Sequence record: MW598459
Source of the DNA: Escherichia phage vB_EcoM_RZ
Length of the DNA: 64,000 bases
Direction: 5' to 3' (one strand)
Every line of letters starts with the position of its first letter. The stretch's first letter is position 1. This document shows, in pieces, positions 7,701 through 11,992 of the stretch. Made by a program: the position numbers and the translations under genes. The notes beneath the pieces were generated by a model. That model made no database searches. It saw nothing but the letters and a program-made list of their open reading frames with translations, and was not told the DNA's origin.

Positions 7701-8386
7701 TACCAGCCCTCCATAGGGAATTCCAGATATACTTGAGCATTAACGCGGATTTCATTTGTAATCTTTTTAACACGGTCGGTATTACGAGACACACGACCAA
7801 ACCAGCGCCAACCGTTACTTACTGCGCGAGAACCCGTATGCCATGTCTGCCAATCAAACTGGAGCAACGTGCGGTCAGGAGCATCCCACTTGGTTAATTC
7901 ATTGGACTCAATTTTTTCCAGAACTTCTTTATGCCACTGGCGATAGATAAGTTCGCCTTCAGGAATCTGACTAAATTGCGCAGTTCCGGTTGCAAAATAA
8001 GTAGGACACACATCAGCGTTAACAAGACCAAGAATATGTTCAGAATGGTAACGAGGATTGTCATAATCAGGTTGCCCTGCAGTAATAAAGTGTTGACCAA
8101 CCGGAATATCCGGGCGTGGTACATCGTCATGGTGATAACCTGGGATAGCAGGATACCAACCAGGCATCAGCATATGAACCCGAGAATCAAATACAACCTG
8201 GTCGGTGTTCCAATCATCCGGCAGACTCATAATAAAGCTACGAGTAATAGGACCGCCATTGTCAAAAGCGAAAGCCAATGAGCTGTTGAAGAACATAGTT
8301 TCGTTTTTGATTTTATCATTAGAAATTTTACCAGCGAAACTGCCTACTGCATGAGCTTGAGAATTAAAAGTTTTTGGACCGTTCAT
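7700..8386 (-). CDS. hypothetical protein
   Basis: 228-aa ORF preceded by an early-promoter cassette. Confidence 0.5.
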   Translation of the reverse strand: MNGPKTFNSQAHAVGSFAGKISNDKIKNETMFFNSSLAFAFDNGGPITRSFIMSLPDDWNTDQVVFDSRVHMLMPGWYPAIPGYHHDDVPRPDIPVGQHFITAGQPDYDNPRYHSEHILGLVNADVCPTYFATGTAQFSQIPEGELIYRQWHKEVLEKIESNELTKWDAPDRTLLQFDWQTWHTGSRAVSNGWRWFGRVSRNTDRVKKITNEIRVNAQVYLEFPMEGW

Positions 8387-8413
8387 AATATTTTCCTCAT
8401 TGATTGTGGGACC

Positions 8414-8443
8414 ATTGTGTCATAGCCCCACTTGGATGTACAC
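8414..8443 (-). promoter_or_regulatory. T4-type early promoter cassette (imperfect dyad)
   Basis: Minus strand GTGTAC-N17-ACACAAT with inverted repeat GTGGGGC/GTCCCAC; leader CAATCAATGAGG before ATG at 8386. Confidence 0.4.
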
Positions 8444-8445
8444 AA

Positions 8446-9405
8446 TTATTTTTCGAAAGGGCGAATTAAATGCTGGTTAGCTTTGAAACGTTTAACATAG
8501 TCTTCGTGACCCAGGGTGTTGTACATATTAACCACTTCCTGATAATGTTCCCAGGCATACTCACGGAACCATCCAGAAGTAATGGAGGTACAGACTTTTT
8601 CCAGCGCAATATGGAAGCTCACGGATGGAGAGATATTGAACTCATTGGGAACCTGCGAACGCTCCAGAGCGAGTACACATGCTTCTTCATAAACCCCTGC
8701 CAGTTTAATAATCTCAGGGAGTGCTTCAAATTTTTCACGCGAGGTCATAACTTCTGAATCATCCTTCATATAGAACTTATATGCAGGTTTATCAGCAAGC
8801 GCCACGGCCTCGTGGATGGAGTCATGGTCAAGGGTATAGATTGTATCATTAAAGAAAGTTTTCTTGCCCACGTCTAGTTTAGGGTGACTATATGACAATG
8901 TTTCTGCCTGGCGCTGCAGCATGATTTTATGCAGTTCGTCATTAAGAACAACACCCTTATTGCGAAGGTAATTAATATGACTCATTGTCTTCAGGAAGAA
9001 TGGATTGTTCTTCAGGTAACGATGAGACAGTTTAATTGCCAGACAAATATCAGGAGTCGCCCAATAGAAACCTGTAAGACGGTCTTTCTTAATATGATTT
9101 TCAGCGTATTTCAAGAGACGATAACTTGAGGTGAAATCTTCATCTTGAAGCTCACCAGTAATTTCTCGTACGTTAGTCAGGGCACGGACAATATAAGCTT
9201 CAAAATAGGTTTCTTTGCCATTGTACATACATTTAAAAGCTTGGACATCAGGGTTATCCACAGGAACATGAGCACCGAACATACGTGCTTTAAAGTGGTT
9301 CCAGGAGCCCTGGTCAGCGATAAAGTCCCAATCAGAGTTTTCAATTTTCTGACTTTCAATCAGACCAGCGTTATGTAATGCACGAGAACCAATAACTAAC
9401 ATCAT
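8446..9405 (-). CDS. hypothetical protein (possible nucleotidyltransferase-like N-terminus)
   Basis: 319 aa; N-terminal VIGSRALH...SDWDFIAD loosely resembles a GS...DxD polymerase-beta-type NTase motif; not verified. Confidence 0.5.
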   Translation of the reverse strand: MMLVIGSRALHNAGLIESQKIENSDWDFIADQGSWNHFKARMFGAHVPVDNPDVQAFKCMYNGKETYFEAYIVRALTNVREITGELQDEDFTSSYRLLKYAENHIKKDRLTGFYWATPDICLAIKLSHRYLKNNPFFLKTMSHINYLRNKGVVLNDELHKIMLQRQAETLSYSHPKLDVGKKTFFNDTIYTLDHDSIHEAVALADKPAYKFYMKDDSEVMTSREKFEALPEIIKLAGVYEEACVLALERSQVPNEFNISPSVSFHIALEKVCTSITSGWFREYAWEHYQEVVNMYNTLGHEDYVKRFKANQHLIRPFEK

Positions 9406-9433
9406 AATATTTTCCTCATTAGTTGACGAGATA

Positions 9434-9463
9434 ATGATACTACGTTTCTTTAGACTTGTATAC
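9434..9463 (-). promoter_or_regulatory. T4-type early promoter cassette
   Basis: Minus strand GTATAC-N18-TATCAT-TATCTCGTCAACTAATGAGG before ATG at 9405. Confidence 0.5.
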
Positions 9464-9506
9464 TAAATCTTGTACATAATTTTCTTATCACATCCTTGTG
9501 ATTAAA

Positions 9507-9734
9507 TTATTTTCCTAACGAAATACGAGTAGGTTTTTTGCCAAAATATTCTTCATAAGAACCATCTAAACGACCCGCTTTAGACCGACAGTATGAATCG
9601 TACTTTTTGTAATAAGTCATCTCAGTATTATAACGCGGGTGTCTATCAGCCATAATAATACTTAATGGCCAACCTTTGGCATAATCGCGAAGACCATTTA
9701 TTTTACTAATGTATCTTTTCTTTAATTTTAGCAT
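9507..9734 (-). CDS. hypothetical basic small protein
   Basis: 75-aa ORF. Confidence 0.4.
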   Translation of the reverse strand: MLKLKKRYISKINGLRDYAKGWPLSIIMADRHPRYNTEMTYYKKYDSYCRSKAGRLDGSYEEYFGKKPTRISLGK

Positions 9735-9952
9735 GAGCTCGGGTACCAGATTTTACCGTCGGCGCGGGCAACGAAGGTACGACCAGCTTCTTCGCCGTAA
9801 CAAGAGCTATTCAGCCAATCTTCAAGACGAACTTCACCGTCATAATCATCTAGCTCAACACCAAAATCCTGAGCAGAAGCCATATCTTTTACTTTCTTAT
9901 ACAGGGCAGCCAGTTCAAGAGCAGCTTTTTCTAATTCGTTAATATCAGTCAT
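9728..9952 (-). CDS. hypothetical small protein (distant member of the C-terminal W-x-S-S-C family)
   Basis: 74 aa, acidic, ends KIWYPSSC-stop. Confidence 0.45.
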   Translation of the reverse strand: MTDINELEKAALELAALYKKVKDMASAQDFGVELDDYDGEVRLEDWLNSSCYGEEAGRTFVARADGKIWYPSSC

Positions 9953-9961
9953 TTTTATTCC

Positions 9962-10156
9962 TTAGCATTCGTAAGAGGAGGACACCCAAGAGGTACCACT
10001 AATTGTAATACAACCATTATAAAGCGTAATATGTCGTTCTAGGTCACGAACACCATCAATGTAGATATCAGCTTCTTCGCGTTCTTCTTTACAAATCTGG
10101 ATAACGTTTTCAATAGCTGCCGCGGCAGTACGGATTGCACAATCTAATTCACGAGA
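9962..10156 (-). CDS. small protein, WVSSSxEC C-terminal family
   Basis: Start at MSRELDC with SD AAGGAA; ends SGTSWVSSSYEC-stop. Confidence 0.5.
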   Translation of the reverse strand, partial: SRELDCAIRTAAAAIENVIQICKEEREEADIYIDGVRDLERHITLYNGCITISGTSWVSSSYEC

Positions 10157-10167
10157 CATATAATTCC

Positions 10168-10449
10168 TTAACATTCAGAAGAGGAGGACACCCAACCGCC
10201 ATTTTCCAGGTCAGTTGTATAGTCATGAGTGTTAACAATAGCCCATTCAGGATGGCCATATTCTTCCCAATGGGCAAGGTCAGCTTTCAAGGCACCAGGA
10301 GAATAATAGTCACCGCCCATACCGCGAGCAGGGTATATATTAAAATGAGTCTCATATTTGTTTGCAATTTCCTCGGCACGCCGAATAGCTTTATGGATGT
10401 CATTTACTGCGTTAGCCAGTTCTTTATTTTTACGGTAATCATTCATCAT
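10168..10449 (-). CDS. small protein, WVSSSxEC C-terminal family
   Basis: 93 aa; ends ENGGWVSSSSEC-stop; 3' coding DNA near-identical to the next family member. Confidence 0.5.
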   Translation of the reverse strand: MMNDYRKNKELANAVNDIHKAIRRAEEIANKYETHFNIYPARGMGGDYYSPGALKADLAHWEEYGHPEWAIVNTHDYTTDLENGGWVSSSSEC

Positions 10450-10458
10450 AACGTTTCC

Positions 10459-10749
10459 TTAGCACATTGCCGAAGAGGAGACCCAAGCACCAACTGTAAC
10501 GACACCGTTTTCAACTTCACCGCCGTTGTTTTCAATTTCATCTTTAAACCACTGGGAGCATTCATAACCGACAGGATAATATGTACGGCCTGAACCATAA
10601 TCACCGGTACCGAATTGGATACCATATTCATCTGCGATTTCTTCGCAGTGTTTTTCAATTTCAGAGGTCTTATTTAGAAGAGAATAGATGGCTTTTTCTG
10701 CAGATTTCTCATCATAATACTTGGGGATAGCAATTTCAATTTTATTCAT
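10459..10749 (-). CDS. small protein, WVSSSxEC C-terminal family
   Basis: 96 aa; ends TVGAWVSSSAMC-stop. Confidence 0.5.
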   Translation of the reverse strand: MNKIEIAIPKYYDEKSAEKAIYSLLNKTSEIEKHCEEIADEYGIQFGTGDYGSGRTYYPVGYECSQWFKDEIENNGGEVENGVVTVGAWVSSSAMC

Positions 10750-11099
10750 GATTTACATTCCTTAATAAAGGTTTCAAGGTCATTACGTTTTGTTTTGTCT
10801 AGGAACTTATTATACTCAGCCATTGCCGAAGCATATCTCTTACGGCTAGGAGCATTCACTGCATTTGTGTGACAGATATCATAAACAACCGGGATAAAAT
10901 AAGCCACAACAGCCGGAGCAATTATCATAAAGAAGCCCATCTCAATAGGCATGACTCCCTCGATTGCAGCCATAACCGTGGTCATTACCAGACCAACCAA
11001 ACCACCGAGCATACCGGTGACAATTCCCAATAATAAATTGCCGCCAATATCATATTCAGCCAATTGATAAACATGTGATGCAAGACTAGGCCGTTCCAT
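10746..11099 (-). CDS. small membrane protein (2 TM, C-terminal FIKECKS)
   Basis: Start at MERPSLAS preceded by SD TAAGGAGG; hydrophobic helices LLLGIVTGMLGGLVGLVMTTVMAAI and FFMIIAPAVVAYFIPVV. Confidence 0.5.
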   Translation of the reverse strand: MERPSLASHVYQLAEYDIGGNLLLGIVTGMLGGLVGLVMTTVMAAIEGVMPIEMGFFMIIAPAVVAYFIPVVYDICHTNAVNAPSRKRYASAMAEYNKFLDKTKRNDLETFIKECKS

Positions 11100-11446
11100 T
11101 ACGAACCTCCTTAATAAATTCTTCGGCACATTTAATTTTGTGCTCTTCTTGTAGGGAAACACATTTTTGTTCCCACTCTTTAACTCGTCCACGATATCCT
11201 TTATTCATATGATTTTGATGCCATACATTTATCAAAATCATACTCAGGACTGTAATAAAAGGAGCTGCGATTATTAGCGCCCAGGCAACTCCAACACTAA
11301 TGATATCCATATCCCCACAAACCACCATCATTATAACCCCAACAATGCACATGGACAAAGCTCCAAATGGAGGCATAAGGTCTTTATCAATCTTGTCTGC
11401 GTATACAAATTTTTCTGGTTTACTTGGCAGATATAACGTTCGCATT
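11086..11446 (-). CDS. small membrane protein (2 TM, C-terminal FIKEVRN)
   Basis: Start at MRTLYLPS with SD AAGGGG; two hydrophobic helices; its tail codons FIKEV contain the SD (AAGGAGG) of the downstream gene. Confidence 0.5.
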
Positions 11447-11992
11447 TTGAACCCCTTTAGCATATTCACGACATTCAGCAATAAAACGATTAAGCTTACG
11501 TTTCCGTTTACGACCCTCTAATGTATACTCAGCCGCCAAATCAAGAAGCTCATCTTTATCATAATTTTTAATATCAGTATAAGTTGGGCGGCGGTCAACC
11601 ATTCCAAAGTGGTCACCATTTTCCAACATCAAATAACACACCAAATGGTCATCATCGTCCGCATTAATAAGCTGCTTATAATCACTTGGTTCATTTAACG
11701 CATACACAGAATAACTCAGCCCAGCGAATTCCACTCGTTGAATACCCAGATTTACGTCAATAATTTCCAAGGCATCTGCAAAAGAAAGGTCTTCAGCTAA
11801 AGCAAAAATAAAAGGCAATTTGGTAGTATCGCCGCGACTTGTTGTTCTTCTTAAGAAATCATTGGAATAGCCCAAGTCGCGGCGGATTCTATAAAGAACT
11901 GTGTTAGTTTCAGTGGCAAGACCACTACCGCCAAACCATTCCACATTTGATAAAAGATTATCATATAAAGTCATAATTTTCTCCTCTCCCAA
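11420..11992 (-). CDS. hypothetical protein (C-terminal KRKRK..FIAECRE)
   Basis: 190-aa ORF, acidic core, basic tail. Confidence 0.5.
   Translation of the reverse strand: MGEEKIMTLYDNLLSNVEWFGGSGLATETNTVLYRIRRDLGYSNDFLRRTTSRGDTTKLPFIFALAEDLSFADALEIIDVNLGIQRVEFAGLSYSVYALNEPSDYKQLINADDDDHLVCYLMLENGDHFGMVDRRPTYTDIKNYDKDELLDLAAEYTLEGRKRKRKLNRFIAECREYAKGVQNANVISAK

Follow-up and report, generated by a model that had tools for sequence, protein, structure and literature searches.

Several nucleotidyltransferases of the Pol-beta fold, among them GlnD, GlnE, MntA and CitX, act on protein hydroxyls. GlnD and GlnE uridylylate or adenylylate a tyrosine of a protein (PII and glutamine synthetase, respectively). 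In the type VII toxin–antitoxin pair MntA–HepT, and in AbiEii and MenT with their upstream antitoxins, the enzyme's target for covalent modification is its partner or tRNA, and CitX and MdcG attach a nucleotide-derived prosthetic group to a serine of the small acidic proteins CitD and MdcC. A different arrangement is found in multi-precursor clusters for ribosomally synthesized and post-translationally modified peptides (RiPPs), where many LanA or ProcA precursors are served by one lanthipeptide synthetase. Here we analyse a 64,000-nucleotide stretch of Escherichia phage vB_EcoM_RZ (record MW598459; hereafter the window), in which four tandem genes for small acidic proteins with a shared Trp/Ser/Cys tail at the extreme C-terminus lie upstream of a gene for a DUF7277+DUF7275 protein. 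The tailed genes and the DUF7277+DUF7275 gene together look like an undescribed two-part module, probably made up of an enzyme and the tagged proteins that partner it.

This locus resembles each of the described systems in part. As in GlnD and GlnE, a putative nucleotidyltransferase-type N-terminal domain is followed by a helical domain rich in conserved His and Asp, and a small protein, as dedicated partner, exposes an element that carries hydroxyls. However, no sequence similarity to GlnD or GlnE was detected, the partners are not PII-like, the proposed acceptor is a C-terminal Ser/Cys tail rather than a loop tyrosine, and the module is restricted to phages, with as many as five partners for one enzyme. 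A putative minimal nucleotidyltransferase of the G-S...D-x-D kind, encoded beside a small partner, also recalls MntA–HepT and AbiEii/MenT, whereas the partners here have no HEPN, AbiEi or MenA similarity (no Pfam or PADLOC match), the module was not found in bacterial chromosomes, the small genes are multi-copy (one to five per enzyme) and the Cys tail has no counterpart in those systems. We therefore do not count the module among the MntA–HepT, AbiE and MenAT toxin–antitoxin pairs, from which it departs in homology, bacterial occurrence and 1:1 pairing.

The closest chemical analogy to the reaction that we propose is offered by CitX and MdcG, where an acidic protein of ~100 residues is modified on a serine, although there is no homology, no CitG-type precursor synthase lies nearby and the context here is a lytic phage. 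Tandem, short, divergent genes with one conserved recognition element and a Ser...Cys pattern, beside a single enzyme gene, are reminiscent of RiPP clusters. In contrast to leader–core peptides, the small proteins here are predicted to be folded (predicted local distance difference test, pLDDT, 92), and no LanB, LanC, LanM, LanKC or radical-SAM homologue is found among the neighbours; given this confident predicted fold and the lack of such enzyme domains, we reject membership of the lanthipeptide or other RiPP precursors, with which only the Ser...Cys pattern is held in common. We regard the module as a nucleotidyltransferase-type enzyme with dedicated small-protein partners, with a modest chance of new chemistry. 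Both components are so far catalogued only as families without known function: the entries for phrog_899, phrog_4882 and Pfam DUF7275 and DUF7277 record neither a function, the tail motif nor the linkage, and the searched PMC open-access and bioRxiv literature contained nothing relevant on the DUF accessions, PHROG identifiers, names of the open reading frames (ORFs) or such a tail.

The tail as a selected feature of a phage protein family

The tail is a strongly selected protein feature. HMMER, run exhaustively against 1.84 billion representative proteins (E<=0.001), recovered 216 family members, nearly all of 64-145 residues, which gave 147 usable representatives at 50% clustering; single-sequence, word-indexed searches had returned only close relatives, and the distant ones were reached by exhaustive HMMER and profile searching. 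We define the tail family as small acidic proteins with W-x-[S/A/P]-S-S-x(0-2)-C at the C-terminus, either as the last residues or one residue short of the end, a description that fits all four window proteins. An earlier note on this DNA, made from the letters alone, had proposed a profile search with the tail. The HMMER search of the family found the ending W-x-[S/A/P]-S-S-x-x-C in 142 of the 147 representatives, with the W-to-C spacing fixed. Cysteine is the very last residue in 132 of the motif-bearing members and is followed by one further residue in nine.

Across a 139-sequence alignment with a mean column identity of 18%, the only invariant columns are the tryptophan, one serine and the cysteine of the tail; a hairpin element, A-Y-G-M-G-G-T-Y-Y-P, is also conserved. 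The tail is family-specific, as the earlier note supposed, and the most conserved element of otherwise divergent paralogues. Additionally, 121 distinct tail DNAs encode the two invariant serines with all six codons (TCT, TCC, TCA, TCG, AGT and AGC), the cysteine with TGC or TGT, and the stop with TAA, TGA or TAG. Within 85 related loci the motif stands at the C-terminus of 227 of 2632 same-strand ORFs and of 0 of 2712 opposite-strand ORFs, a contrast that chance could not produce.

Two familiar uses of a cysteine can be set aside. The terminal cysteine is the only one in 81 of the 147 members, which rules out a zinc or Fe-S site within one protein as a general feature. A CaaX-type prenylation signal would place cysteine at position -4, and here it is last in 132 of 142 members and second to last in nine.

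In the window, the four adjacent ORFs reported by the earlier note are indeed present, all on the minus strand and with their tails directly before a TAA (Table 1). The orthologues in phages VR7 and DK-13 are annotated in the same frames, always as hypothetical proteins, confirming that the tail is translated without frame errors. The proteins have isoelectric points (pI) of 4.3-5.2 and net charges of -6 to -9 (family mean -7), and belong to phrog_899 (96, 93 and 74 residues) and phrog_4882 (65 residues), both catalogued without function; the small proteins have no match in Pfam, NCBIfam, PADLOC or PDB sequences. There are five paralogue classes (A96, A93, S65, B74 and C75), and orthologues of every class occur in phages of Klebsiella, Citrobacter, Enterobacter and Edwardsiella, among others. 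Orthologues of A96 are 65-99% identical, A93 is found in 280 phage records by tblastn, and both motif copies of B74 are invariant in 11 orthologues.

The start of S65 needs correction, as the end at 10156 given by the earlier note drops the start codon, the ATG at 10157-10159 behind an AAGGAA Shine-Dalgarno sequence. An alternative ATG at 10174 (ORF 9962-10174) has a poorer Shine-Dalgarno sequence; it lies (10168-10174) inside the last codons of the preceding gene (GA-ATG-TTAA), and S65 is annotated as a 70-residue form in DK-13 and as a 65-residue form in VR7. The fifth class, C75 (75 residues, ending FWYNSSMSC; VR7 locus L001, 3341-3568), lies between the 65- and 74-residue genes in VR7 and many relatives, and is missing from the window (compare 9952-9962). 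Orthologues in several records (UPEC07, vB_YenM_P8, EAWsc9, vB_EcoM_005 and ABTNLsp5) bear evidently spurious GenBank product names: tail completion protein, major capsid protein, CAZy GH13 protein, malate synthase and transposase.

An AlphaFold2 model of the 93-residue protein alone, a prediction that the earlier note had also suggested, was built on a 110-sequence alignment and is confident (pLDDT 92.3); an earlier model from a shallow 15-sequence alignment (pLDDT 53) was discarded. The model has a helix (9-32), a hairpin (35-41/44-49) with the G-M-G-G motif as its turn, a second helix (51-63) that corresponds to the variable insert, and a strand (84-88) formed by G-G-W-V-S. Residues 89-93 of the tail are the only low-confidence segment, and this part is presumably flexible. 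Matches in a viral model library were confined to uncharacterised proteins of T4-like Yersinia, Aeromonas, Acinetobacter and Pseudomonas phages. The beta-grasp fold and C-terminal Gly-Gly of ubiquitin-like and sulfur-carrier proteins (ThiS, MoaD) are not found, and we reject that assignment.

In hhalign profile comparisons, the N-terminal helix and first strand tie B74 to the main family (95.5% probability), and only the last 13 residues tie S65 to it (93.5%). Because S65 matches the main family through the tail only, the tail acts as if it were a portable tag. The four genes belong to a widespread phage-restricted family, as paralogues or as analogues that share the tail. A few members of 131-175 residues (P0071, P0073, P0110, P0111 and P0069) carry 50-100 extra N-terminal residues; the phrog_899 profile spans 221 positions, of which the window proteins cover the C-terminal 70-90 only, consistent with such N-terminally extended members.

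The linked DUF7277+DUF7275 gene and its sister clade

The array (10749-9728) lies upstream of the partner gene (9405-8446), all on the minus strand, with a 75-residue ORF and a 100-nucleotide spacer between them. Among the 38 loci reached through the small protein, 36 carry a same-strand DUF7277/DUF7275 gene downstream, the two exceptions being contigs that end earlier. The same immediate-downstream neighbour occurs in Myxococcus phage Mx1, in T4-like contigs and in metagenomic phages whose replication genes are unrelated. In the other direction, 85 loci were retrieved through the enzyme, and 77 of them have an upstream ORF ending in the strict motif; three more (L068, L125 and L124) have variant tails upstream, judged by eye, and another (L116) offers only 353 nucleotides of upstream sequence. 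In all, tail genes lie upstream in about 80 of 84 loci found by way of the enzyme. Grouped at 60% identity, 25 of 27 enzyme lineages have a tail gene.

Tail genes number one to five per single enzyme gene, with independent expansions to five in several lineages. Clustering of all ORFs from all loci revealed no third conserved gene in the module, and the 64-kb window holds no other tail-bearing ORFs. The enzyme gene is present in 730 of 50,697 phage records and, among 185,579 prokaryotic species represented by one genome each, in only five contigs, all from metagenome-assembled genomes; thus, the module is phage-restricted. Macro, HopBF1-kinase, Gad2 and NUDIX genes are among its neighbours in other phages.

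The arrangement G-S...D-x-D...E is a signature of Pol-beta-type nucleotidyltransferases. Across 15 diverse homologues, the N-terminal domain of the partner protein is invariant at G6, S7, D25, D27 and E69 alone, which are arranged as h-h-h-G-S (h, hydrophobic), 10-17 residues, D-x-D-h-h and a later strand h-E-h, a pattern that agrees with the Pol-beta motif hG[GS]-x(9-17)-D-h-[DE]-h with a third carboxylate on a later strand. In the C-terminal domain K125, S127, H128, R129, K139, T140, R165, H194, D195 and H198 are invariant, as are E240, E241, E248, R249, C272, W279 and R281; Cys272 lies in K-V-C-T-S, and this cysteine is kept in 122 of 122 close-clade homologues. One homologue weakly matches the nucleotidyltransferase family DUF6036 (Pfam, E=0.25), and three GenBank depositors name homologues '(putative) nucleotidyltransferase'. 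From these motifs, we consider that the partner is probably, with some room for doubt, a nucleotidyltransferase.

More distant DUF7275 proteins form a sister clade found in KVP40-like and other Vibrio phages, in Gordonia and Streptomyces phages and in many metagenomic contigs. We sampled 37 of these loci (L132-L168), with the enzyme ORF called in 36 and the position of the cysteine readable in 32. The sister enzymes retain the G-S...D-x-D motif and most C-domain motifs. No tail-family genes lie near the enzyme in the sampled loci, and the position of the invariant cysteine holds I, A, V or L (Cys in 0 of 32, versus 122 of 122 in the first clade). Instead, the sister enzyme adjoins one to four tandem copies of a different small-protein family, with no Pfam match, characterized by G-G-E-G-x-G, Y-F-R-K-x-G-x-Y-x-S-Y-x-G and a near-terminal V-T-x-[Y/F/W]-E. 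This last motif lies within the final nine residues in 41 of 53 sister small proteins, and 48 of 53 have an aromatic residue at a distance of 1-5 residues from the C-terminus. An enzyme with a small-protein array bearing a hydroxyl-bearing C-terminal motif recurs in two clades, which lends support to the idea of a module, and the enzyme cysteine occurs only where the partner tail ends in cysteine.

Table 1 Coordinates of the tailed genes, their motifs, the partner gene and example loci of the sister clade
Feature	Coordinates	Strand	Description	Match or basis
Class A96 gene	10459..10749	-	96 aa, acidic, pI 4.4, ends WVSSSAMC, hairpin motif GDYGSGRTYYP	phrog_899 E=3.7e-23
Class A93 gene	10168..10449	-	93 aa, acidic, lone Cys is the last residue, ends WVSSSSEC, hairpin motif ARGMGGDYYSP	phrog_899 E=5e-20
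Class S65 gene	9962..10159	-	65 aa, acidic, ends WVSSSYEC	phrog_4882 E=4.8e-35
Class B74 gene	9728..9952	-	74 aa, acidic, internal DWLNSSCYGE and terminal IWYPSSC	phrog_899 E=6.4e-10
Tail codons of A96	10462..10485	-	WVSSSAMC	translation, TAA directly after
Tail codons of A93	10171..10194	-	WVSSSSEC	translation, TAA directly after
Tail codons of S65	9965..9988	-	WVSSSYEC	translation, TAA directly after
Terminal motif of B74	9731..9748	-	WYPSSC	translation, TAA directly after
Internal motif of B74	9800..9817	-	WLNSSC	translation; invariant among 11 orthologues
Linked partner gene	8446..9405	-	319-aa DUF7277+DUF7275 protein	Pfam DUF7275 E=1e-75, DUF7277 E=4.5e-26
Sister-clade example loci	L134:2818-3979, L135:2306-3363, L132:2809-4797			

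Candidate roles of the tail

Tentatively, we infer that the tail is a substrate, the site that the neighbouring enzyme recognises and probably modifies. The earlier note had suggested a shared interaction or modification tag; as a candidate role, and no further, this fits the near-obligate linkage to one enzyme-like gene. The small proteins are very acidic and have a predicted fold that combines a long helix at the N-terminus with a three-stranded sheet and an insert that is acidic and variable; the exposed tail, G-x-W-x-S-S-S-x-x-Cys, would be a functional tag. The DUF7277+DUF7275 enzyme would recognise this tail and act on it, most likely by transferring a nucleotide-derived group to one of the invariant serines, which by analogy with GlnD, GlnE, MntA and CitX would be the likeliest acceptors. 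Chemistry on the alpha-carboxylate is disfavoured, because ~6% of members have a residue after the cysteine. The terminal cysteine, together with the invariant Cys272 of the enzyme, might take part in docking, in thiol chemistry or in a subsequent reaction.

One enzyme would then serve one to five differently 'loaded' small proteins, with the variable acidic inserts as working surfaces, probably aimed at host targets early in infection; the accessory-region context suggests a role in host takeover or counter-defence. In the comparisons and the model, the tail looks both portable and accessible: it is the sole overlap between S65 and the main family, it is duplicated in B74, and it is the only low-confidence segment of the predicted structure. 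Several conserved paralogues per enzyme (one to five copies), together with this portability and flexibility of the tail, lead us to favour several substrates for one enzyme over a 1:1 inhibitor. A more elaborate version, which we regard as improbable, is a phage-encoded protein-maturation system of a new kind in which the enzyme would nucleotidylylate a tail serine and the terminal cysteine would then react, helped by Cys272. The product might be a thioether (lanthionine-like) C-terminal ring formed by elimination and addition, or a covalent thiol adduct between enzyme and partner or partner and target. Up to five acidic effectors would thereby carry a modified C-terminal warhead against host functions, and the sister clade would use its near-terminal tyrosine, so that an enzyme with an array of mini-proteins tagged at the C-terminus would be a general system among large phages.

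Several observations weigh against a substrate role or the enzyme assignment behind it. The nucleotidyltransferase assignment hangs on a short motif. In the PDB, profiles built with HMMER from the full-length partner protein and from its N- and C-terminal domains find nothing; hhalign comparison with approximate KNTase and AadA sequences gave less than 2% probability, although the short aligned pieces are the equivalent motifs; and the partner protein has no similarity to T4 NrdC.11, an RlaP-type nucleotidyltransferase. Four enzyme loci, L066 and the mutually near-identical L087, L089 and L099, lack a tail gene in the 3.5 kb upstream. T-even relatives have 0.1-1 kb between the array and the enzyme gene, with a hairpin and sometimes inserted ORFs, so that co-transcription is not assured there. 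Finally, the co-occurrence of the two cysteines follows a single phylogenetic split and thus counts as one event, a lead rather than proof.

A serious rival, which we judge possible while leaning against it, is that the small proteins are regulators akin to antitoxins that bind the enzyme and restrain or activate it, the tail entering the active site or its cysteine pairing with Cys272. Small antitoxins do control nucleotidyltransferase toxins, and the tight linkage here, with the small gene upstream and the enzyme downstream, as well as the co-occurrence of the invariant enzyme cysteine with the Cys tail, would suit such a role. However, each enzyme gene is accompanied not by one regulator but by 1-5 divergent, individually conserved paralogues, nothing matches toxin–antitoxin components in Pfam or PADLOC, and the module is nearly absent from cellular genomes (the five metagenome-assembled matches above). 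The acidic proteins might instead be independent effectors that hit host targets alone, for example as nucleic-acid or protein mimics against defences or host enzymes, with the tail as their own binding, oligomerisation or metal-binding element and the adjacency to DUF7275 reflecting common timing or a common pathway. The strong acidity of the proteins speaks for this, as do inserts that differ among conserved paralogue classes, the accessory e.2-e.3 location that is empty in T4, and the Macro, HopBF1-kinase, Gad2 and NUDIX neighbours in other phages. Yet those other neighbours are not conserved whereas the linkage to the enzyme is near-universal across its lineages, the sister clade has its own, different small-protein arrays, and tail ORFs occur nowhere else in the window; we consider independent action unlikely.

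An explanation at the level of nucleic acid, or a trivial Ser-rich ending, deserves almost no credence. Two window tails share 17 nucleotides, TTGGGTGTCCTCCTCTT, so the near-identity of their 3' DNA described in the earlier note is real, and each stop codon in the window overlaps the TAAGGA Shine-Dalgarno sequence of the next gene; an RNA element could thus be imagined in which a CCUCC run pairs with that Shine-Dalgarno sequence in translational coupling. However, homologues differ freely in their Ser, Cys and stop codons, and many of their tails are not followed by a Shine-Dalgarno sequence, while the fixed spacing, the invariant tryptophan and cysteine and the empty opposite-strand control are hard to reconcile with a low-complexity ending. 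The codon data refute an RNA-level explanation of the tail. The 17-nucleotide identity follows from identical residues and codon preference, as orthologues elsewhere use other codons. Nor is the 'recent duplication or gene conversion' that the earlier note read into it supported: paralogue identity is ~27% (27% between the 93- and 96-residue proteins), each class is conserved across genera, and tail codons vary between phages. The targeting role that the earlier note also raised finds support on neither side. Recognition and probable modification of the tail by the neighbouring enzyme is the reading that we retain, with the tentativeness stated above.

Genome setting and wider meaning

The window comes from a Gaprivervirus-type T-even phage, and the region is 99.3% identical to Escherichia phage DK-13 and ~94% to VR7. 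The array sits within an accessory region, between e.2-side genes and the e.3/e.4 membrane-protein genes, with every gene here on the minus strand; in T4, e.2 and e.3 abut with nothing in between. A six-frame scan of the whole T4 genome gave no match to the enzyme profile at E<=10, and its best match to the small family (E=0.015) lacks the motif; no T4 ORF has the tail. Both module components are absent from T4; the earlier note had not recognised the small family from that phage.

Several features surround the module. The 75-residue ORF between the array and the enzyme gene (9507-9734, minus strand; phrog_7065) is basic (pI 9.9) and has an ATG that overlaps the final Cys codon of the 74-residue gene (TC-ATG-C TAA). 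It is found in some relatives and missing from VR7-type genomes, and therefore looks inserted and not like a component of the module. A small conserved inverted repeat, ATCACAAGGATGTGAT, lies downstream of the array (~9485-9505, minus strand), in the window after the inserted ORF, and also occurs in loci L001, L005, L008 and L013; a sigma-70-like TATACA-17-TATCAT is present in the spacer ahead of the enzyme gene. Because of this repeat and the sigma-70-like site, T-even-type phages may transcribe the array and the enzyme gene as separate units. A promoter and terminator scan of 8300-11700 gave nothing above shuffled expectation. Upstream of the array, two membrane-protein genes (10746-11192 and 11086-11481, minus strand) are e.3- and e.4-like; both match phrog_2330 (E=2.4e-45 and E=0.0023), which suggests from sequence that they are distant paralogues of each other.

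If the substrate reading is true, ~1.4% of sequenced phages (730 of 50,697 records) carry an unrecognised module of an enzyme with tagged proteins. Carriers include many coliphages considered for therapy, phages of Acinetobacter, Aeromonas, Pseudomonas and Klebsiella, jumbo phages and Myxococcus phage Mx1. Protein nucleotidylylation would then gain a new class of substrate and perhaps a new reaction on a C-terminal Ser/Cys tail, and the module would account for several conserved 'hypothetical' genes in a hyperplastic region of T-even-type genomes. The system is also tractable, since it consists of small soluble proteins, a single enzyme and a tag of eight defined residues. Whatever the mechanism, the tail and its linkage provide a precise handle with which to annotate hundreds of genes and to correct their misannotation.

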